Below, one piece after another: positions 2,583 through 32,118 of a DNA stretch of 45,477 bases. Origin of the DNA: a virus; the IMG/VR virus record IMGVR_UViG_3300045988_117871; one strand, 5' to 3'. Both the position numbers and the translations under genes were made by a program. Each line of letters opens with the position of its first letter. Position 1 is the stretch's first letter. Below the pieces are notes generated by a model that was not told where the DNA came from, did no database searches, and saw nothing but the letters and a program-made list of their open reading frames with translations.

Positions 2583-2621
2583 TAAAAAATAAGGCAGCCA
2601 CAACTATTATGTGACTGCCTT
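2583..2621 (-). terminator. Rho-independent terminator ending the lysis/regulator transcript
   Basis: Minus-strand hairpin AAGGCAGTCAC...GTGGCTGCCTT (2591-2621, one mismatch), followed by ATTTTTTATG. Confidence 0.65.
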
Positions 2622-2849
2622 TAATGCTCTCTTAACTGAATTATACGCCTGCTGCAGATCTCTTTCGACCGTTTGCACTGACGTATCTATTTTCATCGCT
2701 ATTTGATAGTTTTTAAGATCGTGAATAAACTTGAGTTCTATAATTTCTATTTGCCGCGGCGTTAGTTTGGCTTCTGAAATAATTGCTTCAAATTCCTTTC
2801 GTGTGGACTGCGAAAGCCAATCTCTTGCCTGCAAACGGCAAGTATCCAT
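2607..2849 (-). CDS. Small sigma-70 region-4 / LuxR-like HTH regulator
   Basis: 80 aa. LTPRQIEIIELKFIHDLKNYQIAMKIDTSVQTVERDL reads as a region-4-type helix-turn-helix. Confidence 0.7.
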   Translation of the reverse strand: MDTCRLQARDWLSQSTRKEFEAIISEAKLTPRQIEIIELKFIHDLKNYQIAMKIDTSVQTVERDLQQAYNSVKRALKAVT

Positions 2850-2853
2850 ATAA

Positions 2854-3315
2854 TCACCTGCTCGCTGCTATTGTTCCAACTAATGCCCCTCCTATAAATC
2901 CCCAAAAGGCCTTCTGTTTTTGTTTCAATTCACTTTTGGATTGTTCTTTCTTTATTTGCTCGCTCAATATCTCTAAGGATTTGTTTTGCTCTGCTATTAT
3001 TTTTTTGGAGTTCGACAATGATTCCTGCGCACTCGTTAGCTCGCTCCTTATCTTCTGATAAGATAAACGCTGCTCTTCGATTAGCTTCTTCAGCTCGTTC
3101 GAGTTCATCTGCTGCAGTTCCAACGTGTTCGATAGCCCTATCAACAGATTTTCCTGTCTGTTTATTATCGTCTGCAATTCCTTGAACTGTTCCCTGGACA
3201 TCGTTATTGTTTCCGGAAGTTCCTCCGCAAAACAATTTAAAGAAAATGATAAGCACAGCAATAAGGGCAAAACTAATAATAAGATACTTGCTATACCTGA
3301 TTTGTTTTTCTTCAT
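2854..3315 (-). CDS. Signal-peptide / coiled-coil / C-terminal TM protein (spanin-like candidate); frame B of an overlapping pair
   Basis: ATG at 3315 lies 10 nt after GAAGGG. N-terminal signal-like MKKNKSGIASILLLVLPLLLCLSFSLNCFA, heptad-rich middle, unique C-terminal AFWGFIGGALVGTIAASR. The stop is embedded in the SD of the next gene. Codon third positions are G-rich, which is off-frame-like. Confidence 0.5.
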   Translation of the reverse strand: MKKNKSGIASILLLVLPLLLCLSFSLNCFAEELPETITMSREQFKELQTIINRQENLLIGLSNTLELQQMNSNELKKLIEEQRLSYQKIRSELTSAQESLSNSKKIIAEQNKSLEILSEQIKKEQSKSELKQKQKAFWGFIGGALVGTIAASR

Positions 3316-3585: not shown

Positions 3586-4125
3586 TTACCAATTATGATG
3601 CCACCAGATCGCCTTACCACGAATAACATCACCGCCGGGTTTCAGTTCTCCGTCGCCTGGCACATCTGGTAATTTCCACAAGTCCCAGCGTTCAAAAGTA
3701 GTTGCCGGGCCGTAGTCGTCTAAGTCTGCAGCTTCTGCATGTGTCATTACGGTATCGGCATTAATGTCCAATCCAAGCTCCTCACACAGTACAGCTACAA
3801 CTTTTGCCATACTATCTATCTGCAACTCTGTCGGTGGCACGTTACCAAAGTCGATATGCCCATCAGCATAGGCTACAGCATCTACGCAGCACGCTAAAGC
3901 GATACCTACAGCCCCTGTATTACGCCGCCATGTATGAGCCTTATATTCAGTTAAATCATCGGTTGTCGCCATTATGGCGCCGTCGCTATCAATGTTTAAA
4001 TGATAATCACTGAAAAACTGGTGATAATTACCAGCTGACCAGTGTAGATAGATTTTATCAATATTACCTTTACCCCTTACTGCTAACTGCCGCAGCTCAT
4101 CTAAAGTGATTCTTTTCGTCACCAT
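3586..4125 (-). CDS. N-acetylmuramoyl-L-alanine amidase (Amidase_2/PGRP-type endolysin)
   Basis: IYLHWSAGNY...AHTWRRNTGAVGIALAC pattern. The ATG at 4125 has SD AGGAGG at 9 nt; the track start at 4161 lacks an SD. Confidence 0.8.
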   Translation of the reverse strand: MVTKRITLDELRQLAVRGKGNIDKIYLHWSAGNYHQFFSDYHLNIDSDGAIMATTDDLTEYKAHTWRRNTGAVGIALACCVDAVAYADGHIDFGNVPPTELQIDSMAKVVAVLCEELGLDINADTVMTHAEAADLDDYGPATTFERWDLWKLPDVPGDGELKPGGDVIRGKAIWWHHNW

Positions 4126-4438
4126 TGTTTTCTGCCTCCTGTTCAAACTTGTCAGGGACACCGTCCCCGTCTTTATCTACTAAACTTGTAGCTATAAAGG
4201 TCACAAATGCAACCATAGCCGGACCTGTGATCTCACGTATCAACGCCAGCAGGTCAGACATAATAATCTTATCCAACCACAACCACATATACATCCACGC
4301 AGCGTAATAGGTTAGTACCAGTAAAACGACTGCAATAAAATAGCCTACAATGACAGCCATTATTTTTGGCGACATTGAGGCTACTTTATTTCTGGCACTC
4401 ACTATTAAGTTTTTTATTTTCTCAAGCATAAATATCAC
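4097..4438 (-). CDS. Holin-like multi-TM protein with acidic C-terminal tail
   Basis: 113 aa with at least two hydrophobic helices. It lies between the XhlA-like and amidase genes. The start is ambiguous (GTG 4438 or ATG 4429). Confidence 0.6.
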   Translation of the reverse strand: MIFMLEKIKNLIVSARNKVASMSPKIMAVIVGYFIAVVLLVLTYYAAWMYMWLWLDKIIMSDLLALIREITGPAMVAFVTFIATSLVDKDGDGVPDKFEQEAENNGDEKNHFR

Positions 4439-5914: not shown

Positions 5915-6859
5915 TCAAATCGTCAGAACAAAGCCGGCAAACTTCTCCGTACTTTGGATTATGATATTACTGCCACTTTCAACTACGTCTACCATAACAC
6001 TCTCATAGGTACTGCCATTAGTACGATACATACCAAGGAAGTGTTTTCCTGAAGCTGCTAAGGTAAATGGATAGTAGCCGTTTGATAATGTTCCCCAGTT
6101 GGCGCTACTTGCTGTAAATTCAGTTTTGGTTACTGACGCAGCACCGGTAACAGCTTCTGTAACTTCATCTTTTGTAGCATAAGTAGATGTGATGACATTG
6201 CCACTAGCATCTTGAGTTGCTTTAGTAGCACTGGTCGCATTAGCTACATTATTTATCGTAATAGTGGTAGTTGTACCGCCTGTATTTACGGATAACTGAT
6301 TGGCAGTGCTTCCAGCTGTTACAGACCTTACACCTGTGTTATTAATGGCATTGCTAGATATACTTATACCTGTGCCTGCTGTATAAGTAGTATCCGTAAA
6401 TACAGCATTAGCCGGTACTGTTTTGTTAAGGCTATAAGTACAAGCTTTAGGAACACCACCATCAAAATATACAGGCTGTGTTGTACTGCCGGCAGAAGTT
6501 GTTAGTTTAGCGGCAGCAGCTGCAGTTTCAGTTTTACCGAGTTTACCTGCTATAGCTTCATTCATAGCTGCCGCACCCGTTTTATCTTCTGCAATGTAAT
6601 CGGCAATTTCTTTTAACGTATCGTAAGTATCAGGCGCTCCGTCAATCAGCTCATCTTTTACTGCCGACTTTGCAGCCTCAATAGCACTATTCATATCAGC
6701 AGTCTTTGCATAACTCGCAGCTGCTACGCCACCTAATTTACTACTGTCAGCGGCAGTTTCGGTCTTACCGAGCTTGCCGGTATCCAACGCTTCAAAATTA
6801 GCATTAATCTTAGCGTCTCTCTCTGCTAAAGTTCCGGTGACAATTTTTTCTACACTCAT
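5915..6859 (-). CDS. Tail fibre protein
   Basis: 314 aa with a repeated GKLGKTETAA motif and a Thr/Ala/Ser-rich shaft. ATGA overlap with the upstream gene. Confidence 0.75.
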   Translation of the reverse strand: MSVEKIVTGTLAERDAKINANFEALDTGKLGKTETAADSSKLGGVAAASYAKTADMNSAIEAAKSAVKDELIDGAPDTYDTLKEIADYIAEDKTGAAAMNEAIAGKLGKTETAAAAAKLTTSAGSTTQPVYFDGGVPKACTYSLNKTVPANAVFTDTTYTAGTGISISSNAINNTGVRSVTAGSTANQLSVNTGGTTTTITINNVANATSATKATQDASGNVITSTYATKDEVTEAVTGAASVTKTEFTASSANWGTLSNGYYPFTLAASGKHFLGMYRTNGSTYESVMVDVVESGSNIIIQSTEKFAGFVLTI

Positions 6860-8004
6860 TCTAAGTAACCTCCATCCAATATTATTTTCCCTGTGAACGC
6901 TTTGCTCACATTTATAACAACGTTACCGTTATTATCTACTCCGGCATTAGCATAGTAAGGATAACTAACGCCATCAATTATTTGTGTTAAGCTGACAATG
7001 ACCGGACTGTTTCCTGCCTGGTGTTCCTCAGCAGATATGGTTAGTACGAAATCACTGCCAACCTCTGCAAAATCTTCATCCGTAAAGTTTTTGACATAGA
7101 CCTTATCACCAGTCTTTTTTGTCAGCGACGCTAGTATAACGATGCCTGCAAACCTTTCAGGAACTTCGATAATCACATTTTCGGCGTCCATATAAACGCC
7201 GGTCAGTACCATTTCATACTGAGGCTTCTTGACTTCCTTGTAAACGCCTATAAGCCTGCTGTTACCCATTGCCATTGTAAAACGCCACATGCCGTTGTTT
7301 TCAGTCCATCTGTCATCTGTCGCAGTAAACTCTTTTGTTATAGTTCCGCTCTCAAAACGCAGTAAAATATCTTCTGCACGGTCAGCAGCATCTTCTGCTT
7401 TCTCTGCATCTTTTTTTGCAGATTCTGCACTTTCTGCTGCTGACGTTTCAGACTTCTTTGCAGATTCTGCACTCGCCTGTGCCTGCTCCATAGCAAATTT
7501 AGGATTAGGCCCAGCAATAAGTTTTTTACCGGTTTCATCCCAATAAAAACTCTCATTTGGCATTGGTTGTGGCAGAACTGTAGAAATATCTTTAGGCGCT
7601 GAATCTGATAAACGAATTGCTCTCGTTACACCGTCCCACAGCTGTTGGCAAATTATCGTTAGTTTATCCAATGCCGCTTCGATAACATTAAATGGCCAAT
7701 GAGTATCCAACTGAGATTCCTGTGTTATAGGAACCTCACGATATAAAACAAGCTGCCACCCTTCAGGTAATATTGGTGGTCGTTCTGCCTCTGGTGGTTC
7801 TGCTCCCGGAGAATAGCCAGGATAAAACACTACTGACTTCTCCATATCAACGAAATAATCTTTGGTTAAAACAGTTTCTTTAAAATCGGGATCAACAAGT
7901 ACTACATTAATATCGGTCTTTTCCAATATCTTAAAAGAATATCCAAACTCTGTAGCAACTCCATTCCCATTGTATGTAATCCTATTTTCACTGCTGCCTA
8001 TCAA
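6856..8004 (-). CDS. Tail fibre / fibre-adaptor protein
   Basis: The track start at 8022 is a TTG lying inside SD GGAAGGAGGG; the TTG at 8004 follows that SD by 7 nt. N-terminal ITYNGNGVATEFGYSF fibre-type domain and an acidic Ala-rich coiled coil. Confidence 0.75.
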   Translation of the reverse strand: MIGSSENRITYNGNGVATEFGYSFKILEKTDINVVLVDPDFKETVLTKDYFVDMEKSVVFYPGYSPGAEPPEAERPPILPEGWQLVLYREVPITQESQLDTHWPFNVIEAALDKLTIICQQLWDGVTRAIRLSDSAPKDISTVLPQPMPNESFYWDETGKKLIAGPNPKFAMEQAQASAESAKKSETSAAESAESAKKDAEKAEDAADRAEDILLRFESGTITKEFTATDDRWTENNGMWRFTMAMGNSRLIGVYKEVKKPQYEMVLTGVYMDAENVIIEVPERFAGIVILASLTKKTGDKVYVKNFTDEDFAEVGSDFVLTISAEEHQAGNSPVIVSLTQIIDGVSYPYYANAGVDNNGNVVINVSKAFTGKIILDGGYLE

Positions 8005-8020: not shown

Positions 8021-8051
8021 AAATAAAAAAGCGCCTACCGAAGTAAGCGCT
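8021..8051 (-). terminator. Intrinsic terminator (UUCG tetraloop) immediately upstream of the tail-fibre SD
   Basis: Minus strand AGCGCTTAC-TTCG-GTAGGCGCT followed by TTTTTATTT. Confidence 0.7.
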
Positions 8052-8079
8052 TTCTATTAAGTTCTAACTAACTTTATGA

Positions 8080-8119
8080 TACTATTTTAACTCATTTTTA
8101 TAGGGGTTTTGTCGGATAC
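8080..8119 (-). promoter_or_regulatory. Bipartite late motif, copy a (GTATCCGACA-N16-GAGTTAAAATAGTA on the minus strand)
   Basis: One of three copies with identical 16-nt spacing. Confidence 0.55.
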
Positions 8120-8170
8120 ATTTTTAATTTTTTTACATCGCCTCTGCTCTCATATCCAATAACCTTACAT

Positions 8171-8210
8171 TACTATTTTAACTCTTGTTAAATGGCATTT
8201 TGTCGGAAAC
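8171..8210 (-). promoter_or_regulatory. Bipartite late motif, copy b (GTTTCCGACA-N16-GAGTTAAAATAGTA)
   Basis: Lies 91 bp from copy a. Both blocks are identical to copy c. Confidence 0.55.
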
Positions 8211-8261
8211 TTTTTAAAATTTATTTCTTAATCTAAAGTAAGGTTAAATAACTAAACTAAA

Positions 8262-8293
8262 TTGACAAACTATTATAATTCTAGTACTATAAT
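8262..8293 (+). promoter_or_regulatory. Sigma-70-type promoter of a small moron cassette
   Basis: TTGACA (8262-8267), 17-nt spacer, TACTAT (8285-8290); overlapping TATAAT at 8288-8293. Confidence 0.55.
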
Positions 8294-8352
8294 AGTAAAG
8301 ATAATTGAATTTACCAGTTGTATTATATAGTGAATACACGGAGGTGTTATAT

Positions 8353-8484
8353 ATGTGGAGCGAATCTTGTGGAATCTTAGAACGAAATGGTAAAGATCCA
8401 TTTAAATTCGATGCCGAGTTATTAGTAAAAAAAGAAACCACTACCCCAAAGGAAAAAGAACAAAGCACCAAAGCCAATAAATAA
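8353..8484 (+). CDS. 43-aa charged peptide (moron)
   Basis: Below the ORF-track cutoff. SD GGAGGTG lies 6 nt before the ATG. Sequence MWSESCGILERNGKDPFKFDAELLVKKETTTPKEKEQSTKANK. It has its own promoter and terminator. Confidence 0.5.
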   Translation: MWSESCGILERNGKDPFKFDAELLVKKETTTPKEKEQSTKANK

Positions 8485-8516
8485 GAGAGAGCATTATATG
8501 CTCTCTTATTTTTATT
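8485..8516. terminator. Bidirectional intrinsic terminator
   Basis: 9-bp stem AGAGAGCAT/ATGCTCTCT with a 3-nt loop. T-rich on both sides. Confidence 0.7.
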
Positions 8517-8614
8517 AGCAATTATTTTTTTGGCGAAAAGCAGATTCTTTAAGATACCATGTATTATATAATTTTGCTATTTCAGTATAATATTTTTGAG
8601 CAGGATCTATATTT

Positions 8615-9382
8615 CTATAAACGATAAAGAAATATAGATTTTTTTACATTTTGTAAAAAAGTCTGGTGCAAAGAATTATAAACATAGTCACTCCCAGCTA
8701 AATTATTATTGAAATACATACAAAAATATTCTAATTTGTTTAAAGACTCATTGATCATACGTATTACATCAGTCCTAATATCAGAAGAACATATATCATT
8801 TAATATCTGGGCTGGAATAATATTATTTGTATGATTACACAATTCATGAAACGGTAAATAATAGTTAATTTTTGATTGCCGGTACCCCAACGCTAAACAT
8901 TCCACAGAATTACTTAAATCAATTTTTTTATTTAAACTATCAGCTATCATTTCAATTTCTTGGGAAGTGAATATCATTCTCAACTCATCTACATCAAAAT
9001 CCTTTATATTAAACTTCTTAATTTTATCCATTAATTTTATAGTCCCAGTAAATTCAAGGTACTCACTTGAAGCCGTTAATAAAGGTAATATTTCATTACC
9101 ATACAACTTAGCCATTTCAAAAGCATTTTCCTGTGCAAGTTGTTTATTTCTGGTTTCATTTTCTAACTTTATATAATATACTTGTACAGCAACAAAAATA
9201 AGTGAAATACCAGTTGCTATAGCTCCTAATGATGAAAAGAAATTAGTATTTTCTGTTAGAATTTTATGAGCAACAGGACAATAATATAAACCTACAACAG
9301 CCGATATAACTAATGCACTAATTATAGATATTTTATTTTTAGACAGCAAACAAAATATTTTATTTTTAAATTCTGCAATCAT
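8615..9382 (-). CDS. Two-TM membrane protein with an unassigned cytoplasmic domain (moron; Abi/exclusion candidate)
   Basis: 255-aa ORF in a visibly AT-rich island. Has its own TGgTATAAT-type promoter upstream and two N-terminal hydrophobic helices. Confidence 0.75.
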   Translation of the reverse strand: MIAEFKNKIFCLLSKNKISIISALVISAVVGLYYCPVAHKILTENTNFFSSLGAIATGISLIFVAVQVYYIKLENETRNKQLAQENAFEMAKLYGNEILPLLTASSEYLEFTGTIKLMDKIKKFNIKDFDVDELRMIFTSQEIEMIADSLNKKIDLSNSVECLALGYRQSKINYYLPFHELCNHTNNIIPAQILNDICSSDIRTDVIRMINESLNKLEYFCMYFNNNLAGSDYVYNSLHQTFLQNVKKSIFLYRL

Positions 9383-9507
9383 ACACAGCTCTTCTTTCCA
9401 CGATAGTAAATACTTTTTATATTATACCATATAGTTTATAAATGTGATATAATTGTGAAAAACAGTCAAAAATTTTCTGTTTCCCATAAAGCAAAGGAGG
9501 ATTTATT

Positions 9508-9807
9508 ATGTTAAAAAAAGTATTGTTAATGAGTATGGCTTTATTGGTAGGTATCAATACGGTTAATGCCTGCGAGGTAGAACACAAGGAGGATAACAGT
9601 AGAAGGGAAATTATTAAAGACCTCAAGCCTTGTATGAATGAAAGTTGCCCAGTTTATAAAAAATATAAGGAATTAGAAATTATTATCGAAATTGAACTCG
9701 AAGAAAAAATGTCTGATGAACAAGTAGCAACAAGAGCAGCCAGACAGGATTTCGTAAAGGCTAATACTAGAAAATTTAAAGAACCGACAAAAATTATATA
9801 CAAATAA
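9508..9807 (+). CDS. Small secreted protein (signal peptide)
   Basis: SD AAAGGAGG at 7 nt. The signal peptide MLKKVLLMSMALLVGINTVNA is followed by a Cys-containing charged domain. Confidence 0.75.
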   Translation: MLKKVLLMSMALLVGINTVNACEVEHKEDNSRREIIKDLKPCMNESCPVYKKYKELEIIIEIELEEKMSDEQVATRAARQDFVKANTRKFKEPTKIIYK

Positions 9808-9859
9808 AGAATTGAGGAAAAATCATGAATGATTTCTACTATGAGGAAGAAGGAACATC

Positions 9860-10531
9860 ATGCAAAGAGTTCTTGCTTTATTTATAATATTTTTATCCAT
9901 ATTTATCTTTGGATGCACCACTGAAAAAAAACAAAATAATACTATACATCAAAGTAATATACACACTTCCTCGACCCTTGTTGTTGATCCATATAGCACA
10001 TCAAAGTTTGAAAGCTTAAATTTTGGTGATTCATTAGAAAAAATTAAAACTTTACCCACCCTAATATATTATGATGAATATCCCAACAGTCTTATAAAAT
10101 CTCCAAAACATAAAAGTTATTTGTTTCAAACAAATGCAAATTCTTATTATAATATACCGTTGATATACGATGCGCCTTTATTAGAGCTCTCTTTTTTTGA
10201 TAATAAATTGTATAAGATAACAGCCAGATTGGATGTAAAAGACGAAAAAGATGGATTAGAAAAATTTGAAAAAATAAAAAAAGAAATCAGCAAAATATAT
10301 GGAAAAGGTCAAAATACCTCAAACCAATTCCTTAAAACTTTTTCTTTGGATATAAATAATACTCATTTTTCAATTATGTTTATCTCAAGACCACCAGTAA
10401 TAACCAAAAACTTGGGTAGTTCGCCATTTGACCTATTAGTTGAATCTTGGGATAGAAAATTACACAAAGCCTTTTTAGATGATGATTTTAAATATTTTGA
10501 AGCTTCTAATGACAAAGAAGCGAAAATATAA
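9860..10531 (+). CDS. Lipoprotein (moron; superinfection-exclusion candidate)
   Basis: MQRVLALFIIFLSIFIFGC carries lipobox I-F-G-C. 223 aa, AT-rich codons. Confidence 0.8.
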   Translation: MQRVLALFIIFLSIFIFGCTTEKKQNNTIHQSNIHTSSTLVVDPYSTSKFESLNFGDSLEKIKTLPTLIYYDEYPNSLIKSPKHKSYLFQTNANSYYNIPLIYDAPLLELSFFDNKLYKITARLDVKDEKDGLEKFEKIKKEISKIYGKGQNTSNQFLKTFSLDINNTHFSIMFISRPPVITKNLGSSPFDLLVESWDRKLHKAFLDDDFKYFEASNDKEAKI

Positions 10532-10558
10532 CCCCCTCAAATTTGAGGGGGTATTTTT
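10532..10558. terminator. Bidirectional terminator between the convergent lipoprotein and giant virion genes
   Basis: CCCCCTCAAATTTGAGGGGG hairpin followed by TATTTTTAT. Confidence 0.8.
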
Positions 10559-10561
10559 ATT

Positions 10562-13500
10562 TTACCGTTCTTTCTTCGGTCGACGTCTAAAGATGTCTCC
10601 AACTTCCGGATCCATACCATTGAACAAGATATCATATCCGTTAAAGAATAATTTGTTTAACTGTGCAGGTACGCCTAATGCTGTTCCAACAAATGTTGCA
10701 GTAGGCTCAACCAATTCGTCATAATCTGCTTTGCCCTGGTAAACCTTTTGCACCTTACCGGCAGCACGCTCCATCTGCTCTATCGTGCCTTGTACTGCTG
10801 TCATTCTATACCCGTAAGTCTGCATGCCTAAAGCCCTGCTCCAAATAGCATTACCAACCTGCCCAACCGGTCCGGCTAAACTCATAGGGTAAGTAAGCAG
10901 TTCTTTTGATATCTTTTGATATTCATCCTTATCTTCTTCAAATGGATCTTCGGCCGACAACATCAAGTTTATAAAAGCAAACATTACAAACTTAGCTCCC
11001 ACAAACGAAGTAAGACGCATTATATCTTTTTCTTTTAAGAAGATGTTATACTCTCTGGCCCACTGATTATATTGTGTATTGAAGAAGCCTTGGAATGTAG
11101 TAAACAGTTTAAGCATAGGTCCGCCACGCAAAAGCGGTGCAACCTCCGTAACTCTGCTGCTGCCAAGTGTACGTCTAATAACCGTATTGGCAAAGTCCAC
11201 AGCTTCTGTTTCGCCTGCACCAGCCCTTATTTTTTTGCCATACGCCTGCATCCATACCGGAATAGCAGAAATATTATCAGTAGTGACCAGCAATCTTGTG
11301 CCAAATTCAACAGCTTTCTTTTCTATAGGATTCAAGCTTTCCATTTCTTTCATATCCCGCAGGGAAATATCCGGAAGCACAGACCTTTCTTTCATCCAAG
11401 GGGATTTGCTGTAAACAAATTCCTTAGCCGATTTATAGCCCTCTGCAAGCTGCATATTCATACTGTAATTGCTCACAGCGGCAACGACATCACTATATCC
11501 AAAACCATCTACAGCATTACCATACAGCAAAGGATTACCCAAGTTCTGAACGGCAGTTTTAAGGTTAAGCATAATAGCAGCGTTTACAGTACGAGCCCTA
11601 AGCCAGTTAGCAACACTGCCCATCCAGCTTTCACCAACAGAACCGCTGTTAGTACCTTGAGGATTTGCCGCACGTTCAAGATATTCTTTAAAGGCAGAGA
11701 AATCGGCCAAACCTAATTTTTCTTTAATCAGAGTATACATTTCCTGATCGTTCATAATTTTACGGAAATCCCCCATAACCTCACGGAAGCACAGATCATG
11801 TATCGCATCCATAGCAACATTAAACTCTGCTCCACGTTTTAGATTAACAGGATATTTAGCCTTAACACGTTCTTTTAAATGGCCTCGTCTGGTGCTCATT
11901 GTTCTAATATTGCGGCCTTGTCTGGGATCAGTATCAGAAATAACTTCTTGCCCAGCGTGTTTAGAACCAGTATCACCGTCACGCATCAGCGGGAAATAAC
12001 CGCCACGCATAACAACAGTCTTACCATCTGATAACGTCAGCTCTACAGGCGACGCTTCTACTTTCTTAGGACTAAACCCTGTCCAACGAGTTTCAAGAGC
12101 TTCCATTTCAGACCAGTACATCTCTGCAATGTCTATCTTAGCCTGTGCATATTTTATATCCGCTTCAGTAAGATTACGCCCTAAGAAGTCAAGCAAATTG
12201 ATTTTAGTCTGTACGATATCGCCATCTACCCACAAGGCAGAACTTTCAAAGCCTACCGGTCTAGTGCTGCACAATACTCTAGCACTGCTCTCGTTGCCTA
12301 AATTCATAAGCATTTTTACTAAAACGTGCTTATCTACAGAAGTACCTAGCTCGTCATATTTTTCCTGATAATCGGCCGCCTTTTCTGCAGCTTTATCCGG
12401 TAGCCACTCCCTGTAAACCTGCGCTGTTTTTTCTTCATATTCTAAAATTTTTCTTGTTTCATTATCGGCTGCTTCTCGAATAGCTGCGCCAAAATGTTTG
12501 CTGAAAAATCCATACTGCCAGTCGTCCATCATTTCAAAAAGATTGTCAGTACTGCGTAAAGACGCTTTTAGCTTCTCCATTACTGTAGGCTGCTGTGTAA
12601 CGCCAACCTGCGGTTTCCATATAGTTTTCAGCTTATTAAGTGTTTCCTGTGCTTCAGCTTTAAATTCAGCATAGGTAACACCTTTCTGTAAAGCGTTGAT
12701 ACTCATTTCCTGTTTAGCGATCGCCTTGATATTTTTAAGCGCATTTACTACATCTTCAAGCTGACTTGCCGTCATACGTTCACGAGGATTTGTAATTCTA
12801 ACATCCTCATACATTATCCAATCGGCAACTGCAACATTGTCATAAAGATCATCCATATCATTCAGATAGTCTGATAAAGTTTCTGTCTTTTCAAAATCAG
12901 AATAATCTTTACGCTTATAACCGAACCTTTCCATAATTGCTGCTGCTTGAATAAAGTTTCTTTCATTACCCCACGTTTCCCTTTTAGCTTTAGCCTGTTT
13001 CCTGAAATAATTCTGCCACTTAACATACTGATTACGTAGTCTTACGCTTTCAACTACACAAGCATGATTAAACGCCTGGACGTTTTTATATCGGACCGCA
13101 GCAGAATAATCATCATTTTCCAATGCTACAGCAGCTTTAGCCGCAGCGTTTCGTTCGGCAGTAATATACTTTTGGGTATTCAAAGCCTCCTTTAATTTCA
13201 CTCTGTTCTGTAGGTCCATCTGTGCCTGAATTTTAGCTGTTTGCCTGCGTGCAACAGCAAGTTTTCTAAGAGTTTCAGCATCACGCTGACCCTTTAACAA
13301 GCCTTGTGCTTTATCCTCAATAAGCTGTGCTTCTGTATTTATCAAAAGACCGCTCTCGTCATTATACATAGCATCACGCGCAGCTTCTTCAGCAAGCCCT
13401 CTCTCTTTGTAAATATCAGGGAAAGCGTCCTGCACCATTTCATCAATATGTCTGTTAACCGCACCATTAAAAGATGGTTCTGACATAATCGTTTTAGCCA

Positions 13501-16500
13501 GCTCGTCACCGGAAGTAAAACCATTAGCTTCAGCTATCATATCAAAAGTTGCCATTTTACTTTCATCAAAATTACCTTCTAAATATCTGTTAGCTACGCC
13601 CTTCGCTGTTTTTAAATCAGATGCAATATCAAGTATCTGCTCCGAAGCCATATATAACGGCTGTTTTGCAATCGCTTCTTTGACCTGCGGCTCTACATCT
13701 TCACGATATTTTTGAATTCGGTCTTTACGCTCCTGATTGAAATTAACAAGGCTTTCTTTTGTTAATAACTGTACTGCCTTATCGTGAGCTTTAGCAGCAA
13801 AATTACGCAGCATTTGCTTACGTGGTTCTGAAAGTGCATCTAACACAACATCTGGCAAAGCAGAAAAATAACCGTCAATACGCTCCATTTCTGATATTTG
13901 CTCTTCACTGGCCAGCATCCTGTCAAAAACCTGCCTTACTTCATCGTTGATTGGAACAGCATTTTTACTGCGCTTATCCGAAAAAACGGCGTTATAAACA
14001 GCAAGCAGCCATTTTTTGAACCTGTTAAATACCGGCTGCAACTCTTTTGAAGGTGCCTTGCCTTCAAGCATATAAGTTTCTGCGGCCTCTGCCAAGCGTT
14101 CATGTGCTGCTGTTTTTTCTTCCTGCGACAAGCTATCCCAGTCTTTAGTGACACCGGCATAATCAAGCATAGTCTGACGGTCTTTTTTCATCTGCTCTGT
14201 AGCATTAGGGAGTGCTCCTTCACGCATGAGGTTCTCAATAAAGTAATGGCCGACAGCTTCATGAATAACAGTGCTCATATCAGCACCTTCAAACAGGCTG
14301 ATAATTGCTTTACCTTCTTCGTCCCAGGTGATAGAACCTTTCTTATCGTTATTAACTTTTTGATTATACTTGTTAAGAATCTTTATGGATTTATCATCAA
14401 ATACTACAAAAGCACGCCCATCAAGATCACCGTAATAAGTAATGCCTTTAATTCCTGCCTTATTTAAAGCAATCGATGCTTCTTTCGCTCCACCCAAAAC
14501 TTCTGATAATGCTGCATAAAAATTATCTCCTGTAATAGCATTACTGTTAAAAAGACCTGCTCCTCTAGATTTCTCTATAGTTTCTAACTCTTTATTATAG
14601 GCCTCTTGGATGGTCTGTTCTTCTGCCGCAATAGCCGCTTGTAATTCTTTTTGTTCTGCTTGGAGAGAATTTACGATACTATCATAATATTGTTGATCTG
14701 TTTTCAGCCGTCCAATATCATATCCTTCTCCTTTTAATTCCGACATTGACAACTCTTTTGCTCTTTGTATAAATTTTGGTGCTGTATCTGGCAACGGCTT
14801 AAGAATTTTATTTAATCTTGATAAAGTTGAATCTCTCTTTCTCGTTTTATTAATTTTTTCTGAATATTCCTCGCTGGTTTCATTTTTTCGCACTGACTGT
14901 TTTAATTGTTCTTTTACTGCACTTCTTTGTTCGCTTCTTAATGATTTATAAAAATTTTTAAGCAGATTTTTTACATTCTCATCCTGTTTGGCAAGTGTTT
15001 TTTGTTCATCCAGCAAAACATTATTCTCTGGGATGTCTACTTCGATAAGCGATCCTTTTATTCTTAACCGTGGTTTAATTTCTCTCTTAAACCATTTTAC
15101 CGCTGCAGGAGAAAAATTTTCTTCGTTAATATCAACAGTCGATCCCTTATATTCTATATCTTCAATCAGTGCCATCTTATCATAATATTTCTGGGCTTCA
15201 GCATTATCTGAAATAGTACCGGCCTGACGTTCTAAGGAATCATATAATTCCATAATCGGCCTGCCACCAAAAGTTACAGAATTATCAGCTGCTTTTCCTA
15301 TAAATCTATATCTATTCCCTGCTACACTACGATCTTTAGCAAAATACAGTCCCCAGCCGTGAGACTGAGCACCTTCACCTGTTCCGATATTTTCTAAATT
15401 AAACTTATTAAATTTATGTGGGCTTCCGTGAAAAGCTGTCTGGTAGTATCCCTGCATTTCTTCTCGTCTCTTGCGGAGTGCATTTTCATCTGGTATACTA
15501 TTATTAAGAAGACTGTCAAGGTCGTTACCTCTGCTGGCGGAATCGCTGCCTGGAGACTGTAACCACTTGGCAGTCTTTTCTTTATTTATATATGACACTC
15601 TACCTTTTTTTAGATTGTGCTCTATAAACCAATCATAATCTGTGCCATTTTCTCCACCTTTCCCATAAGCACTGCTGACAGCATTCACCTGATAACGATT
15701 GCGTTCAACATCAAGTTCTAAAGGAACAATAATAGTAGACCTTTGTGCATCCTTTAAGTCTAATACAACAACCTTACGCCCAGCATACGAATCTAAAACC
15801 ATCATCGGGTCAGCCATAGCACGTGGAACTTGTTTTAGCAGCTCCGGCGTCATGCCATCGGAATGGCCGTCAAAAATATGTTTGATCTTGCTTCCGTCGA
15901 TAGTTACAGGCAAAATTTTACCGCCTGCAAGACCCAATGCAAGCGGTGTCGTCATAACATTATAAGTTTTAGTATCGTTTATTTTCCCTGCAGTATATTC
16001 ATCTACGATGCCAGCAAAGTTTCTTTCATCCTCAATCAATTTTTCGTTAGCGCTTTTAGTTTGCATATATCGTCCCTTAGGAGTACTGACAACACGCTTG
16101 AAGCTTACAGGGTTATCCCTGAAATACTGCATAGGGTCATCAGGATTAGCAATCATAGCACGGCTGGTTAAAATAGCCAGGACGTCACCTGTTTCCTTTT
16201 GATTTAGTCCCGCTTCGGTCAATTCATTTCTAAAAGTATCAACTGCAGTTCTAAATTCCTCGTCGTTCTCCAACGCTTTTTTATAAGCGCTTTGGAGAGC
16301 TTTTTTATTTCTGGCGCGTTCTTCTGTATAACCGCCCTGTTCAAAAGCTACGTTATTGCTTACAGCCTGGAAAAAGCCAGGATTTTGAGCCTCTGCCGCA
16401 CAATACGTACCCATTGGCATTTCAATATCCTCACCACGAACAGCAGCTGCCTGCAGTTCAGAAACCTCTATACCAAAGGTATCTTTTACATCCATGTTAG

Positions 16501-24840: not shown

Positions 24841-24874
24841 TTTATTAAAATAGGGACGCCTTAAAGACGTCCCT
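24841..24874 (-). terminator. Hairpin terminator after the head-gene block
   Basis: AGGGACG/CGTCCCT stem (24852-24874) followed on the minus strand by ATTTTAATAAA. Confidence 0.5.
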
Positions 24875-24912
24875 AAGTGCTTGTACATAGTCGTCACATG
24901 ACTACATAGGTG

Positions 24913-29495: not shown

Positions 29496-30827
29496 TTAAA
29501 ATATCGAATAATCTGTATTGCACATCATCTTACGGCCATACCCAGGATCACCAGGCTTCAATCTCGGATAAACAGGCCTTGCAAAAGTCAAAGCAAGGCC
29601 ATCTGCAAGATCGGGGCTTTTACCTATCTTTTCCTTAATTTCTTCTTTAGGCTGCAAAATGATTTTGCCATGTTTACTAAACTTATACTCTACAATACTA
29701 AGCTCGCTTTTTAATTCCGGCATATCAGGTATAGCACCACCAGACTTGAGCCATTCAAGCATCTTAAAATACATCTCGGCACGGATATTTTCAAAACGCT
29801 GTTCATGCAGTGCATTGCCCTGAAAGTAGACCTCACTGATATTGTTGTACCCCAACTGCTTAATTCGATCTATAACTCCAGCACCCATGACGCCGGCGTC
29901 AATAAAAGTCATATCGGCCTTATATCTGATCATCGCATCAATAACTCTTGCCGCCATATCCATAGTGTCCAGGCCTTTGTAAACTAAAGGCTCATCTACC
30001 CACAGTCCCTGTCGCTTAAAAATAGTAGATCTGTCATCACCATATCTGGCTACATCAACACCAAGAATAACTGGAGCGCCCTGCACATCTTTTTCTGTAA
30101 GCAGTCTGTGTGCTGCCGCCGTAACCAAATCAATAGGAATAACAACATTACTAGCCGATGCAGTAAAATCACAATAAAGCTCCTGACGTATTTCTATATC
30201 CGTCATATCTTCCATCATAGATTTAAGTTCTGCTTCGTCCAGCACACCACTTTCATCAGCTCTATAAAGACAGGTAAACCATTCTTCGCTGCGTTGAGCT
30301 CTTTGGTAGATGTCATAAAACTGATTCTGTCCTTTAGGCGTTCCGATGAAATATGCGAACCCCTTACGATCAGCTAATGCCGGCCGTATTACCTCGCCCC
30401 ATAATTCAGGCTTTATTTGAGCGTATTCATCAAGGACAACACCATCCCAGTAAGTACCGCGAAGGGCATCAGGCTTATCTGCGCCTATAATATATATCCT
30501 TGCCCCAACAGCATTTTTATGCTTCGACGGCAGTTCTATAAACAGATCGCTTTCATTAACCTTTCTTCCTGGAATTGCGCTTGTGTAATACTTCAAATAG
30601 TTCCAGGCAATCATCTTTGCTTGGTTCCTAAACGGTGCCACGTATGCGAACTGAGGACTTATAAGCGTATTCTTAATAGCGCTCTTACTCAATTCGTTTA
30701 TCATCCCTACGGTCTTGCCATAACGTCTGTGCGCTACTATAACAGCGAAACGGTATTTATCAAGCGCAGGATGGATTATATCTTTCCAAAGAGGTCTTGG
30801 CTTGTATGGTATCGTTATTACTTTCAA
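29496..30827 (-). CDS. terL: Terminase large subunit
   Basis: 443 aa. Walker A-like AHRRYGKT near the N-terminus and a nuclease-type C-terminal half. Overlaps terS. Confidence 0.9.
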   Translation of the reverse strand: MKVITIPYKPRPLWKDIIHPALDKYRFAVIVAHRRYGKTVGMINELSKSAIKNTLISPQFAYVAPFRNQAKMIAWNYLKYYTSAIPGRKVNESDLFIELPSKHKNAVGARIYIIGADKPDALRGTYWDGVVLDEYAQIKPELWGEVIRPALADRKGFAYFIGTPKGQNQFYDIYQRAQRSEEWFTCLYRADESGVLDEAELKSMMEDMTDIEIRQELYCDFTASASNVVIPIDLVTAAAHRLLTEKDVQGAPVILGVDVARYGDDRSTIFKRQGLWVDEPLVYKGLDTMDMAARVIDAMIRYKADMTFIDAGVMGAGVIDRIKQLGYNNISEVYFQGNALHEQRFENIRAEMYFKMLEWLKSGGAIPDMPELKSELSIVEYKFSKHGKIILQPKEEIKEKIGKSPDLADGLALTFARPVYPRLKPGDPGYGRKMMCNTDYSIF

Positions 30828-31228
30828 CCGTCATCACCAGCCCAGCGAAATGTTATAGGTTCTCCATCTTTACCGCTGACCTCACGTTTTTCAACAAACG
30901 CTGCTATTGATTTTCCGTATAGCTCAGATGCTTTAAGCCTATTATTCATACGCTCTTCTTTATCGTCTATCACTTCTAGCCAGAACTTCCTTAATTTGCT
31001 AAGTTCATCTATAATATCCTTCTGTTCATCTGCAATTTTTTCTTCAGTAACAGTTTGAAGCTCTGCTACCCTGTCAACAATGTGCGCCTTTGTTAACAGC
31101 CTTGACGCAGCCTGCCTAGCACTTTTCGCTGAATATCCTGCATCTATGGCTGCCTGCTCTTGCGTTTTACCACCTACAGCCATAAGCCGACAAAACTTCT
31201 CCTGCCTTGGATCTTTTAATGCAGCCAT
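30824..31228 (-). CDS. terS: Terminase small subunit
   Basis: KFCRLMAVGGKTQEQAAIDAGYSAKSARQAASRLL matches the terminase small-subunit HTH pattern. Confidence 0.85.
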   Translation of the reverse strand: MAALKDPRQEKFCRLMAVGGKTQEQAAIDAGYSAKSARQAASRLLTKAHIVDRVAELQTVTEEKIADEQKDIIDELSKLRKFWLEVIDDKEERMNNRLKASELYGKSIAAFVEKREVSGKDGEPITFRWAGDDG

Positions 31229-31249
31229 ATCTCCTTCACCACCTTTGCA

Positions 31250-31280
31250 AATACAAAAGCACCTAACCGAAGTTAAGTGC
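31250..31280 (-). terminator. Intrinsic terminator (UUCG tetraloop) immediately upstream of terS
   Basis: Minus strand GCACTTAAC-TTCG-GTTAGGTGC followed by TTTTGTATT. Confidence 0.7.
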
Positions 31281-31369
31281 CTTTATATTAAGTTATATGC
31301 TAAATTTTGATATATATTGCCGTGTTTTCCCTGGCTTTTGCCTGCAAATTATTTATGTAGATTAAACAA

Positions 31370-31528
31370 CTATTTACTACACCACACCACACTTGCCGCC
31401 CACGTTACCCCTATCACAATATCAACTGGCCCTGCTGTTACATAGCCGTCTATAGCTTTTTCTACAGCCTGCCAATATATCTCTATCAAGGTTAGGGCTA
31501 CTAAAAACATTAGTGTTTGCTTTAACAT
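31370..31528 (-). CDS. 52-aa membrane peptide
   Basis: Below the ORF-track cutoff. SD GAGGT lies 7 nt before the ATG. MLKQTLMFLVALTLIEIYW...VIGVTWAASVVWCSK. Confidence 0.45.
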   Translation of the reverse strand: MLKQTLMFLVALTLIEIYWQAVEKAIDGYVTAGPVDIVIGVTWAASVVWCSK

Positions 31529-31630
31529 GTTAGTACCTCAATTAAATAAGCCGCTGTATTACCCCAACGGCAGGGCAGTGTCCAAGCGCTAAGCCTGATC
31601 GTCTCTTGTTGTAAGCCTACTTACTTACAA

Positions 31631-31670
31631 TACTATTTTAACTCATCAGAACAGGTAATATGTCGGAAAC
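31631..31670 (-). promoter_or_regulatory. Bipartite late motif, copy c (GTTTCCGACA-N16-GAGTTAAAATAGTA)
   Basis: Starts 5 nt after the stop of the RinA-like gene, upstream of terS. Confidence 0.6.
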
Positions 31671-31674
31671 TTTT

Positions 31675-32118
31675 TTATTTTATCAAACCTTTTTTCAATG
31701 CCAAACCAACAGCATCTCGGAGAAACTCTTTACGAAATTCATAGCAGGTATCTCTATTTACACCATTTAATTCTGCAATTATTTTCATCGGCTTCCTTTT
31801 TTCATATTTTTGATACATGGCTTTACCCGTAAGCTGGTTTTCATGTATCTTATAGGTTTCTGCGACAACTTCAAGCCATAGCTCCGGATTCATTATTATC
31901 GACTGATATGGTCCATATCCAAACGATATCATACGTACTGGTTCAATGTTTTTTAATGCTGCTGTTTCTGTTGGATTACTGATAAAAGCATGACCCCCAC
32001 CGCCCGTATGCCCTTTCCTTGCAGTACGCTGCTCTCTTTCCTCATCGACAGCTTTTTGTATTTGCTTACGATCCCAAAAGTACCGCTCTACATGCTTAAT
32101 ATACTGTTCTATTAGCAT
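31675..32118 (-). CDS. RinA/ArpU-family late-gene transcriptional regulator
   Basis: 147 aa. SNPTETAA segment and C-terminal HTH IIAELNGVNRDTCYEFRKEFL. Sits directly upstream of the packaging genes. Confidence 0.75.
   Translation of the reverse strand: MLIEQYIKHVERYFWDRKQIQKAVDEEREQRTARKGHTGGGGHAFISNPTETAALKNIEPVRMISFGYGPYQSIIMNPELWLEVVAETYKIHENQLTGKAMYQKYEKRKPMKIIAELNGVNRDTCYEFRKEFLRDAVGLALKKGLIK

Follow-up and report, generated by a model that had tools for sequence, protein, structure and literature searches.

Three copies of a fixed-spacing bipartite motif are putative regulator-dependent late promoters in a temperate phage of Phascolarctobacterium

Three copies of a two-part motif, GT(T/A)TCCGACA-N16-GAGTTAAAATAGTA, lie ahead of the late genes in a 45,477-nt stretch of viral DNA (the window, meaning here the whole stretch that was analyzed), and are probably regulator-dependent late promoters of the virion and lysis genes. 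The phage is best explained as a temperate podovirus with T7-like morphology, integrated in Phascolarctobacterium faecium, the type strain of which carries the prophage. P. faecium is a common human gut anaerobe and a diderm Negativicute.

A search of the window allowing up to 3 mismatches returned exactly three matches to the motif (8080-8119, 8171-8210 and 31631-31670), each of them on the minus strand and free of mismatches, while the chance expectation is 0, with no match in 100 dinucleotide-preserving shuffles. Each half is also confined to these sites when searched separately (upstream half GTWTCCGACA, ≤1 mismatch; downstream half GAGTTAAAATAGTA, 0 mismatches). A sequence-only reading of the same DNA had described the motif, its exact 16-nt spacer, the 91 bp (start to start) that separate the two tandem copies, and the start of the third copy at the fifth base past the stop codon of the ORF at 31675..32118; all of this is confirmed, the spacer length in every copy. 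That reading also called the spacers unrelated, which stands in part: they differ in sequence, yet all three are A/T-rich, with CC at positions 6-7. The motif as first described covers only part of the conserved block, which extends from an A-tract (AAAAA ahead of the GT) to approximately 12 nt past AGTA.

The copy at 31631..31670 (P1, the putative promoter of late unit 1) reads on the minus strand as an A-tract (31676-31671), the box GTTTCCGACA (31670-31661), the spacer (31660-31645), GAGT (31644-31641), a -10-like TAAAAT (31640-31635) and AGTA (31634-31631), with a predicted start near G31628. In the tandem pair, also on the minus strand, the upstream copy (P2, 8171..8210) has its box at 8210-8201, TAAAAT at 8180-8175 and a predicted start near G8168, and the downstream copy (P3, 8080..8119) has its box at 8119-8110, TAAAAT at 8089-8084 and a predicted start near A8077; P2 and P3 share 76% identity across 66 aligned nt.

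In all three copies the gap between CCGACA and TAAAAT is 20 nt, outside the canonical 16-18 nt and, as had been proposed, too far for a sigma-70 -35; consensus scans for sigma-70 promoters with 16-18 nt spacers did not call the three sites. Canonical promoters in another register (CCGACA-17-AGTTAA and TTGATA-18-CATATT) were rejected since neither is common to the three copies. The early promoter at the immunity switch, in contrast to the late sites, is canonical (TTGACA-17-TACAAT). Where an extended -10 would have TGn, the window lineage carries AGT, with G at -14 only; the T of an extended -10 is missing, so TAAAAT is the one element that argues for a sigma-A reading of this -10. A promoter for a phage RNA polymerase was rejected because the phage has no polymerase gene, and no sigma-2 domain was detected in it either.

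The positions of the three copies match the layout of the late genes. P1 follows the last early gene and precedes terS, the pair P2 and P3 follows an island bounded by terminators and precedes a tail-fibre gene, and all three are direct copies on the sense strand of the late genes. Unit 1 begins with terS (30824..31228, minus strand, ATG at 31228) and continues through terL, a T7-type portal, scaffold/protease, capsid, tail tube, nozzle and internal virion proteins to a 2382-aa gene, the product of which has MuF_C as its only domain and no PDB relative. Within the unit, a terminator-like hairpin (24851..24875, minus strand) follows the capsid module upstream of the tail-tube genes. A bidirectional terminator (10531..10552), located 10 nt past the stop of the 2382-aa gene, ends the unit and also closes a plus-strand gene of the neighboring island. 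This variable island (8244..10531) is low in GC (~30%), and in relatives its content differs or it is absent altogether. It encodes a 223-aa lipoprotein and a 99-aa ORF (plus strand) and a 255-aa membrane protein (minus strand), carries its own bidirectional terminator (8485-8507), and its genes have no match in PADLOC. Unit 2 opens with a tail-fibre gene (6856..8004, minus strand) that likely starts at the TTG at 8004 and not at 8022, followed by more fibre genes, holin-like ORFs and an amidase endolysin (3586..4161).

The best reading of this arrangement is that transcription of unit 1 (terS to the 2382-aa gene) would stop at the terminator and that the tandem pair would restart it for the tail-fibre and lysis genes. 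Such a restart had been suggested for the second site, and it gains support from the unit-1 terminator at 10531-10552 and from a relative (L013) in which the island is missing and the orthologous terminator lies directly upstream of P2.

The motif is conserved well beyond the window. A scan of IMG/VR recovered it in at least 117 stretches, which fall into the three site classes known from the window. The complete motif is present in just one of 185,579 species genomes, that of P. faecium DSM 14760, where contig NZ_QLTS01000009 carries all three copies; 36 of the 39 stretches returned by this genome-collection scan lack the GT and AGTA on either side and resemble chance matches (by our own arithmetic, a search with 17 fixed bases over both strands of 596 Gb should give approximately 70). 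When viral loci were selected by the regulator protein alone, without regard to the motif (regulator identity 67-99%), both boxes were exact in 80 of 80, at 10-12 nt past the protein match. The motif search in relatives that had been called for thus found the motif right after the regulator gene in every locus, with none lacking it. Across 36 unique sequences of the P1 region, the segment from the A-tract to approximately +25 is near-invariant and both flanks decay. Orthologous P1 copies therefore keep the spacer as well, and the spacer is free to vary only among the three paralogous sites and from one distant lineage to another. The gene order regulator, motif, leader, terS is shared by the window, the relatives L001-L007 and the distant relatives described below.

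The ORF that ends just ahead of P1 (31675..32118, minus strand) is the last gene of the early cluster and, based on position and fold, encodes a putative late regulator of 147 aa. At its N terminus the protein has a helical hairpin; further elements are a conserved GGGGHAFISNPTE loop, a beta-hairpin and, in residues 78-147, a helix-turn-helix (HTH) domain like sigma region 4. The protein itself has no match in Pfam (E up to 0.01), or in PHROGs or NCBIfam (E up to 1). A profile search gathered 203 cluster representatives; among 95 relatives, 7 weakly match the RinA model TIGR01636 (best E 2e-6) and 1 matches ArpU. Aligned with the RinA of staphylococcal phage phi11 (hhalign), the regulator gives a probability of 58% and an E of 1e-4, colinear over 118 columns. 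In an AF2 model built from 95 sequences (pLDDT 92.5), the C-terminal domain superposes on the -35-binding sigma-4 domain of PDB 3hug (target TM 0.79, rmsd 2.2 Å). None of the PDB fold matches has an E better than 0.08, and viral fold matches in BFVD (E 1e-2 to 1e-1) are to proteins named Sigma-70 r4, DUF1492 and transcriptional activator. The regulator is at most a remote relative of RinA, with a C-terminal domain that is sigma-region-4-like; its earlier assignment to the RinA family holds at best as a remote likeness, but not as a match of the protein itself to Pfam, PHROGs or NCBIfam. Neither megablast of the regulator-terS region nor tblastn of the regulator and its relative P0023 found a match in 50,697 cultured phage records, and the family is known only from prophages and metagenomes.

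The sequence-only reading had named a second candidate reader of the motif, an 80-aa protein consisting of sigma region 4 only (2607..2849, minus strand; Sigma70_r4_2, E 1.2e-7). This protein is present in related phage contigs and sits in a small unit (3315..2607) with its own sigma-70-like promoter (3380-3353) and terminator (2621-2591). It is the weaker candidate and is not favored, as its unit lies far downstream, after the lysis genes, and has no link to the position of the motif.

The same architecture was looked for in eight distant lineages, some of them phages with another type of terminase, in which the regulators are 30-50% identical. In 7 of the 8, a 10-nt box, GTnnnnnAC(A/T), occurs exactly 16 nt ahead of a 4-nt block (mostly nTGn) and TA(A/T)AAT, within a few nt of the regulator stop codon; L255 fits this pattern only with the GT shifted by 1 nt, and L253 has no clear box and at best a hexamer gap of 21 nt. 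Because the box is fixed 16 nt before the 4-nt block and hexamer, the -35-like hexamer lies 20 nt from a sigma-A-type -10, and this 20-nt gap is present in 7 of the 8 lineages. The extended sequence TGnTA(A/T)AAT occurs in 6 of 9 lineages (L247, L248, L250, L251, L254 and L255). A scan of IMG/VR for the motif type of L244 gave only three chance matches in unrelated contexts.

The sequence of the box changes in these lineages together with the first residues of the recognition helix of the regulator. Helices starting with (N/S)RD, among them that of the window regulator with N120-R121-D122, pair with CCGACA, SRQ with TT(T)ACA (4 lineages), (G/S)K(Q/G) with TGGAC(A/T) and NKP with CATACT, amounting to about five independent classes. 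Together with the 80 regulator-selected loci, this co-variation supports the earlier proposal that the motif serves as a phage-specific promoter of the late genes, or as an activator site, and is linked to the regulator. It also bears on a very improbable alternative, in which the motif is a signal unrelated to transcription, i.e., a recombination or module boundary, a packaging signal or a relic of duplication. The copies do reside at module boundaries and beside the variable island, and the P2-P3 pair resembles an ancient tandem duplication of 91 bp. Such a signal would not be expected to co-vary with the HTH of the regulator or to keep its architecture in unrelated phage backbones, as is found here, and a motif whose halves are conserved while the spacer is constant in length but free in sequence points to recognition by a protein in fixed register. 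Since all copies are direct, on the sense strand, with no recombinase gene nearby, invertase or crossover sites were rejected as well.

The mechanism that we favor is one in which host RNA polymerase with its primary sigma factor would read the TAAAAT -10 (the extended TGnTA(A/T)AAT in most relatives). The -35-like hexamer in the box (CCGACA here; TTTACA or TGGACA in relatives) lies 20 nt from the -10, which is 3 bp too far for sigma region 4, and the box would be read instead by the sigma-region-4-like HTH of the 147-aa protein, the gene for which ends 4 nt ahead of P1. Once the early operon makes this protein, P1 would fire, driving transcription from terS through the 2382-aa gene up to the terminator at 10531-10552, with P2 and P3 firing independently for the tail-fibre and lysis genes, past the variable island.

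A second possibility, which we consider unlikely, is that the 147-aa protein takes the place of the host sigma as a minimal but complete sigma factor, with its C-terminal domain reading the box and its N-terminal domain reading GAGTTAAAAT as an ECF-like -10. Bipartite motifs with a fixed 16-nt gap are typical of group-4 sigma promoters; ECF promoters likewise have two short elements at a fixed 16-17 nt gap, the upstream one read by a sigma-4 domain. The best PDB fold matches of the regulator are ECF sigma factors in initiation complexes (SigH, probability 0.98, 116 columns), 2 of the 95 relatives weakly match the sigma70-ECF model, and the conserved block extends to both sides of the hexamer (GAGT...AGTA). 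Global superposition on sigma H is nevertheless poor (rmsd 9 Å, TM 0.36), and neither Pfam nor NCBIfam detects a sigma-2 domain in the regulator, the N-terminal 77 residues of which form a helical hairpin, one helix and a beta-hairpin in the AF2 model, which is not a sigma-2 fold. The -10 in this family (TAAAAT, or TATAAT with TG) is also not of ECF type; it remains a primary-sigma hexamer plus TG even where the N-terminal domains are ~30% identical, and only the box varies.

In the favored mechanism, late transcripts would also have to read through a strong terminator located just before the RBS of the first late gene. Leader terminator 1 (31249..31284, minus strand) is a UUCG-loop hairpin, AAAGGCACTTAACTTCGGTTAGGTGC, followed by TTTTGTATTT, directly ahead of the RBS and ATG of terS; it folds with a dG of -21.3 kcal/mol (z -6.45; 0 of 200 shuffles as good), and the same cassette recurs ahead of the first large late gene in L001, L004 and L007. 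Leader terminator 2 (8021..8053, minus strand) consists of AAAGCGCTTACTTCGGTAGGCGC and then TTTTTTATTT, lies ~25 nt past the predicted P3 start, and is followed directly by an RBS (GGAGGG, 8016-8011) and the TTG start at 8004. It corresponds to inverted repeat I5 (dG -19.2 kcal/mol, z -3.95) and is kept in all P3-class copies of relatives. The P1 leader additionally has a stem-loop at the predicted 5' end of the transcript (31609..31630, minus strand; TTGTAAG...CTTACAA, by folding), variants of which in relatives include a G-C to A-T double change and the equivalent of which in L244 is a 9-bp hairpin of other sequence, and a 52-aa hydrophobic ORF (31370..31528, minus strand) with a hairpin (31571-31550) and RBS ahead of it. 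Neither Rfam, applied to the complete window, nor a search of the P1 leader by E-value found anything. The content of P1-type leaders varies among relatives, and the terminator lies between ~25 nt and 390 nt from the motif, depending on the promoter.

At both units of the window, then, a promoter-proximal intrinsic terminator separates the putative late promoter from the late genes; terminators that follow the motif and precede the RBS of the first late gene also occur in L244, L248/249, L250, L251/252, L254, L255, L001, L004 and L007, and the design is shared by the window, the distant relatives and phi11. The terminators had gone unnoticed in the sequence-only reading. Because each putative promoter is separated from its first gene in this way, late expression needs terminator read-through, and the mechanism to be explained changes accordingly: a predicted terminator 25-390 nt downstream is a cost that plain activation does not explain.

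Promoter-loaded antitermination like that of lambda Q could meet this cost. Host polymerase would start unaided from the -10, which is extended in most lineages, and stop at the leader terminator; the 147-aa protein would bind the box, associate with the promoter-bound polymerase and carry it past that terminator, so that its main effect would be on read-through and not on initiation; we regard this as possible, if rather doubtful, and it can coexist with the favored mechanism. Several features are shared with the lambda PR'-tR' region. The regulator gene, the last early gene, is placed as Q is, abutting the putative late promoter, with the putative regulator site inside the promoter (for the Stx-phage version see PMC7547250) and a terminator soon after it, ahead of the late genes, from which a short terminated RNA, ~54 nt for P3, is predicted without the regulator. 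The strong terminators at both units and in many relatives, the TGnTA(A/T)AAT of 6 of the 9 lineages, and the lack of room for a promoter after the terminator in the relatives just listed all favor such a mechanism. In phi11, the order is the same and read-through from an upstream promoter is blocked without RinA (PMC3152322). The terminator directly upstream of P2 in L013 indicates that a downstream terminator is not needed to insulate the late genes from upstream transcription. The regulator, however, has no sequence or fold likeness to Q proteins, the -35-like element is displaced, and no clear -10-like pause element was identified in the initially transcribed region past the predicted starts. 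The terminators could also be mere partial attenuators, like the hairpin after the capsid module. Moreover, the second promoter set after the unit-1 terminator argues against processive antitermination of the lambda Q type, which would void that terminator and make P2 and P3 needless, yet both are conserved.

The leader terminators further bear on a quite improbable reading in which the motif is a remote regulator site and the real late promoters lie downstream of the terminators, as published for phi11 RinA. Ltr proteins are described as binding just past their own gene (PMC3753634), and the published RinA-dependent 5' end in phi11 maps downstream of the equivalent terminator (PMC3152322), which favors another geometry in that phage at least. 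In the window, only ~17 nt are left between the P3 terminator and the start codon, and these are filled by the RBS; the same applies to L250, L251, L254 and L255. The variable distance between motif and terminator (~25-390 nt) is unlike a fixed activation geometry, and the reading would leave unexplained why TA(A/T)AAT and its discriminator are conserved and the spacing is fixed.

Among known systems, the closest comparison is with the Ltr superfamily (RinA, ArpU, LtrA/Sigma70_r4, LtrB/DUF1492 and LtrC), which comprises late activators acting at terS promoters in Gram-positive phages (PMC3152322, PMC3753634, PMC13123087). Shared features are a ~15-kDa protein encoded by the last early gene directly upstream of terS, a DNA target at or just past its own stop codon, a sigma-region-4-like C-terminal half, specificity that would reside in the part of the sequence closest to the gene, and a terminator after the regulator gene and ahead of terS. 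Sequence and fold suggest a remote relationship as well. An Ltr regulator is both required and sufficient for transcription of terS and acts on its own promoter specifically; the co-variation of box and HTH lends no more than indirect support to such specificity here. The intergenic order of phi11 (rinA stop, repeats, TATTAT, terminator, RBS, terS) is like that of the window, and its -10 and discriminator, TATTAT GATAGTGTAGG, resemble TAAAAT AGTATTGTAAG; this TATTAT lies 45 nt past rinA. The window regulator differs in matching no curated model (TIGR01636 RinA, TIGR01637 ArpU, Sigma70_r4 or DUF1492). A single box of 10 bp, at a constant 16 nt from the -10 block, forms its putative target, whereas Ltr targets are three or four imperfect direct repeats, and a repeat search of 31540-31760 found no set of three or four direct repeats after the regulator gene. 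Ltr phages have one promoter for the whole late cluster, whereas the window has two late units with three putative promoters, in a phage with a T7-type structural module and a diderm Negativicute host.

Spo0A acts at spoIIG, an activator-dependent promoter with a 22-bp spacer, and MotA/AsiA replaces the -35 contact at T4 middle promoters. As in the window, a good primary-sigma -10 is combined with an unusable -35, and a second protein reads a nearby box in fixed register; the proteins are unrelated, however, and the putative reader in the window itself resembles sigma region 4. We tentatively extend these comparisons to the suggestion that the regulator family, and by extension RinA-type Ltr proteins, may combine two roles at a promoter that adjoins their own gene, acting as a sigma-region-4 stand-in on a -35-like box displaced by 3 bp and as a short-range, promoter-loaded antiterminator unrelated to Q, which takes the polymerase across the conserved leader terminator before terS. 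If true, this would explain why RinA of phi11 depends on sequences that lie >155 bp ahead of the mapped 5' end of terS and are separated from it by a terminator.

Late-gene switches set the time at which prophage DNA is packaged and the host is lysed, and the Ltr/RinA proteins of Firmicutes phages are known genetically. The locus described here offers an unusually clean case, with a single box, a fixed register, a primary-sigma -10 and three paralogous copies, complemented by >100 natural variants and by distant lineages in which box and recognition helix change together. The leader terminator directly before the first late gene is a conserved part of the design, phi11 included, which makes the choice between an activator, a sigma-4 substitute and an antiterminator directly testable. 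The motif can also serve as a simple marker by which late transcription units of this phage group are recognized in sequence.

The minus strand of the window carries three copies of a bipartite motif, GT(T/A)TCCGACA-N16-GAGTTAAAATAGTA: P1 (31670-31631) and a tandem pair, P2 (8210-8171) and P3 (8119-8080). A search of the window allowing up to 3 mismatches returned these three sites only, each perfect, and the motif appeared in 0 of 100 shuffled sequences, which bears out the fixed-spacing copies described in a sequence-only reading; searches by half found neither half without its partner. The conserved block is wider than that reading noted, taking in an A-tract upstream of the GT and the first ~12 transcribed bases, which are alike among P1, P2 and P3 (AGTA-W-Y-R-TAA-R). 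P2 and P3 are 76% identical over a 66-nt alignment. A sigma-70 consensus scan did not call P1, P2 or P3, because 20 nt separate the end of the -35-like CCGACA from TAAAAT. The motif is real and very probably serves as a promoter.

The window is a complete temperate phage, with integrase and repressor genes on the plus strand at its right end. An early promoter (43331-43303) is canonical (TTGACA-17-TACAAT), and the early genes on the minus strand (encoding Erf, NinB, a DnaD-like protein, a methyltransferase and a resolvase) are followed by the ORF of a 147-aa regulator (32118..31675, minus strand). Late unit 1 comprises, in order, terS, terL, T7-type portal, scaffold/protease, capsid, tail tube, nozzle, internal virion proteins and a 2382-aa protein, and ends at a bidirectional terminator (10552-10531). 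Unit 2, downstream of P2/P3, contains four tail-fibre genes, holin-like ORFs and an amidase gene. No RNA polymerase gene was found among the genes of the window; a T7-type portal, capsid, nozzle and internal-protein module thus occurs without a phage RNA polymerase in a temperate phage. The 2382-aa virion-module protein (10562-17710, minus strand) matches phrog_9880, a family without assigned function; MuF_C (residues 616-713) was the sole domain found, and no PDB relative was found by sequence.

The 50,697 cultured phage records contained no near relative of the phage. Its host is Phascolarctobacterium faecium, a diderm Firmicute (Negativicutes): among 185,579 species (one genome each), P. 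faecium DSM 14760 alone has the full motif, in all three copies, while the remaining genome-collection matches lack the flanking bases and are in line with chance. One regulator homologue carries the label Phascolarctobacterium sp. A motif scan of IMG/VR returned at least 117 stretches, and the matches listed fall into the same three site classes, the two tandem copies lying 90-92 bp from each other. To avoid circularity, loci were also picked by the regulator protein alone (n = 80, 67-99% identity); both boxes are exact in 80/80, 10-12 nt past the protein match. A near-invariant P1 block (36 unique sequences) begins at the A-tract and ends with a 5' hairpin, with drifting coding region on one side and fast-diverging leader on the other. 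This hairpin, a 7-8 bp stem-loop (31609-31630, minus strand) with which the predicted P1 transcript starts, shows a G-C to A-T double change in relatives, and a 9-bp hairpin of different sequence occupies its position in L244, a locus with a distant regulator; it may be a 5' stabiliser.

The regulator itself had 0 matches in Pfam, PHROGs and NCBIfam, and its 95 relatives gave weak model matches to RinA (7/95), ArpU (1/95) and sigma70-ECF (2/95). Aligned with hhalign, the family profile and RinA of phage phi11 are colinear over 118 columns (probability 58%, E 1e-4). The earlier assignment to the RinA family therefore stands in a remote, superfamily sense and not as a direct family match. An AlphaFold2 model (95 sequences, pLDDT 92.5) predicts a helical hairpin, then a conserved loop (GGGGHAFISNPTE) and a helix, followed by a beta-hairpin and a C-terminal domain of four helices; this domain superposes on sigma-4 (-35-binding) domains (target TM 0.79, rmsd 2.2 A) with weak E-values. 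The viral proteins matched by fold are small ones from phages, and some of them carry the name Sigma-70 region 4, DUF1492 or transcriptional activator. The other candidate reader in the sequence-only reading, an 80-aa sigma-region-4-only protein, was rejected: with a 153-aa protein it forms a separate small unit after the lysis genes (2607-3315, minus strand) that has a promoter-like site (3380-3353) and a terminator (2621-2591) of its own, and nothing links the 80-aa protein to the motif. This protein has a weak PADLOC match to a CARF-associated HTH model.

A profile search for the regulator yielded 203 cluster representatives (~150 aa), and the neighbourhoods of 8, 30-50% identical to the window regulator and some in phages with a different terminase type, were compared. 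Loci were anchored on the first TA(A/T)AAT downstream of the regulator gene, except in L244, where the second such hexamer is the homologous one. Seven of the eight lineages share one layout: a 10-nt box GTnnnnnAC(A/T), exactly 16 nt, 4 nt, then TA(A/T)AAT. The box of L255 fits only with the GT shifted 1 nt, and L253, the exception, is without a clear box. The 4-nt block is mostly nTGn (extended -10), and (A/G)GTA(G/T)TGT follows the hexamer. Every -35-like hexamer in the box (CCGACA, CATACT, TGGACA, TGGACT, ATTACA and, in 3 lineages, TTTACA) lies 20 nt from the -10. The start of the HTH recognition helix changes together with the box: (N/S)RD accompanies CCGACA, SRQ accompanies TT(T)ACA or ATTACA (four lineages), (G/S)K(Q/G) accompanies TGGAC(A/T), and NKP accompanies CATACT. 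This co-variation, in about five independent classes, is suggestive, not proof. At no locus was the motif missing beside a conserved regulator, the case that had been named as counting against the motif's role, and the link between regulator and box is well supported by comparison.

The simplest account fitting all observations has two parts. The host primary sigma would read the -10 hexamer, since TA(A/T)AAT is invariant and the TG correctly placed while the N-terminal domains diverged; the regulator's sigma-4-like domain would read the displaced -35-like box, as supported by its position, fixed register and co-variation. That the regulator is a complete mini-sigma is less likely, as it has no sigma-2 domain and the -10 is constant while the protein varies.

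Between the unit-1 terminator and P2/P3 lies an island (8244-10531, 30% GC). Its plus strand encodes a lipoprotein of 223 aa (lipobox FIFGC) and has a 99-aa ORF, and its minus strand encodes a 255-aa membrane protein; no PADLOC match was found in the island. Island content upstream of P2 differs among related phages, or the island is missing. In the related locus L013, which is without it, P2 comes straight after the terminator that follows the giant gene's stop; the tandem pair is therefore part of the phage backbone, the island occupying the gap between two transcription units. The proposal that the second site restarts late transcription is supported, with unit 1 ending at 10552-10531 and P2 behind that terminator in L013. 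A canonical-looking promoter (8272-8299, minus strand; TTTACT-16-TATAAT, then AGTTTGT) 97 bp upstream of P2 is directed into P2/P3; it falls within a doubtful 77-aa ORF (8244..8477) and occurs only in relatives with the same part of the island. A 13-nt stretch upstream of P2 (8234-8246) is 92% complementary to the P2 leader (8160-8172; AACCTTAC / GTAAGGTT), probably by chance or as an island-specific feature, because the complementarity is missing in L013.

The late-promoter reading overlooked terminators between the motif and the first late gene. Leader terminator 1 (31284-31249, minus strand; AAAGGCACTTAACTTCGGTTAGGTGC then TTTTGTATTT; dG -21.3 kcal/mol, z -6.45) lies directly upstream of the terS RBS. 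Leader terminator 2 (8053-8021, minus strand; AAAGCGCTTACTTCGGTAGGCGC then TTTTTTATTT; dG -19.2 kcal/mol) begins ~25 nt past the predicted P3 start and is directly followed by an RBS (GGAGGG) and a likely TTG start at 8004. The related loci L001, L004 and L007 have the same terminator cassette ahead of the first large late gene. Strong terminators of unrelated sequence (dG -19 to -27 kcal/mol) occur in the distant loci L244, L248, L250, L251, L254 and L255, 35-60 nt past the -10 (~480 nt in L244) and immediately upstream of the first late gene's RBS. They leave no space for a promoter downstream, so late transcripts would have to cross them. This terminator rule is a new, testable observation. 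The two window terminators are paralogous UUCG-tetraloop cassettes (GC(A/G)CTTA(A)CTTCGG(T)TAGG(T/C)GC, T-tract, ATTTG), with a third version in L244 (3935-3970), from a phage whose terminase type differs. A hydrophobic ORF of 52 aa (31370-31528, minus strand), which has its own RBS, also lies in the P1 leader ahead of the terS terminator; relatives have other small ORFs there (56, 99 aa).

The leader terminators may be attenuators that hold leaky lysis-gene transcription below harm. A strong terminator-like hairpin between the capsid module and the tail-tube genes (24875-24851, minus strand), recalling the terminator after the capsid gene of T7, shows that partial read-through is used at another point of the operon. 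On a second reading, the regulator may take polymerase through the leader terminators; the terminators on both sides of P2/P3 in L013 and the extended -10 of most lineages favour this. Two features argue against processive, Q-like antitermination: unit 1 has a conserved terminator, and P2/P3 form a second promoter set.

In phi11 (L257 1541-1726; AF424781 16340-16525), the rinA-terS region has the same element order as the regulator's family: the rinA stop is followed by two TGGCAGT repeats, 16 nt, GAGA TATTAT GATAGTGTAGG, a hairpin, a strong terminator, an RBS and terS. The terminator between rinA and terS was reported previously, with the RinA-dependent 5' end after it, and the authors set the promoter downstream of the terminator (PMC3152322). 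RinA depends on sequences >155 bp ahead of the mapped 5' end, and phages whose RinA types differ lose homology ~120 bp upstream of that end (PMC3152322); this breakpoint coincides with the TATTAT. The terminator, the sequence requirement and the breakpoint fit a repeats-TATTAT-terminator layout.

Lambda Q/PR'/tR' is alike in layout only, and ECF promoters in spacing only. Three defining features published for the Ltr/RinA family are missing here: a model match, a target made of direct repeats, and one late promoter only. Position, size and remote similarity mark the system as a late-regulator system of Ltr/RinA type.
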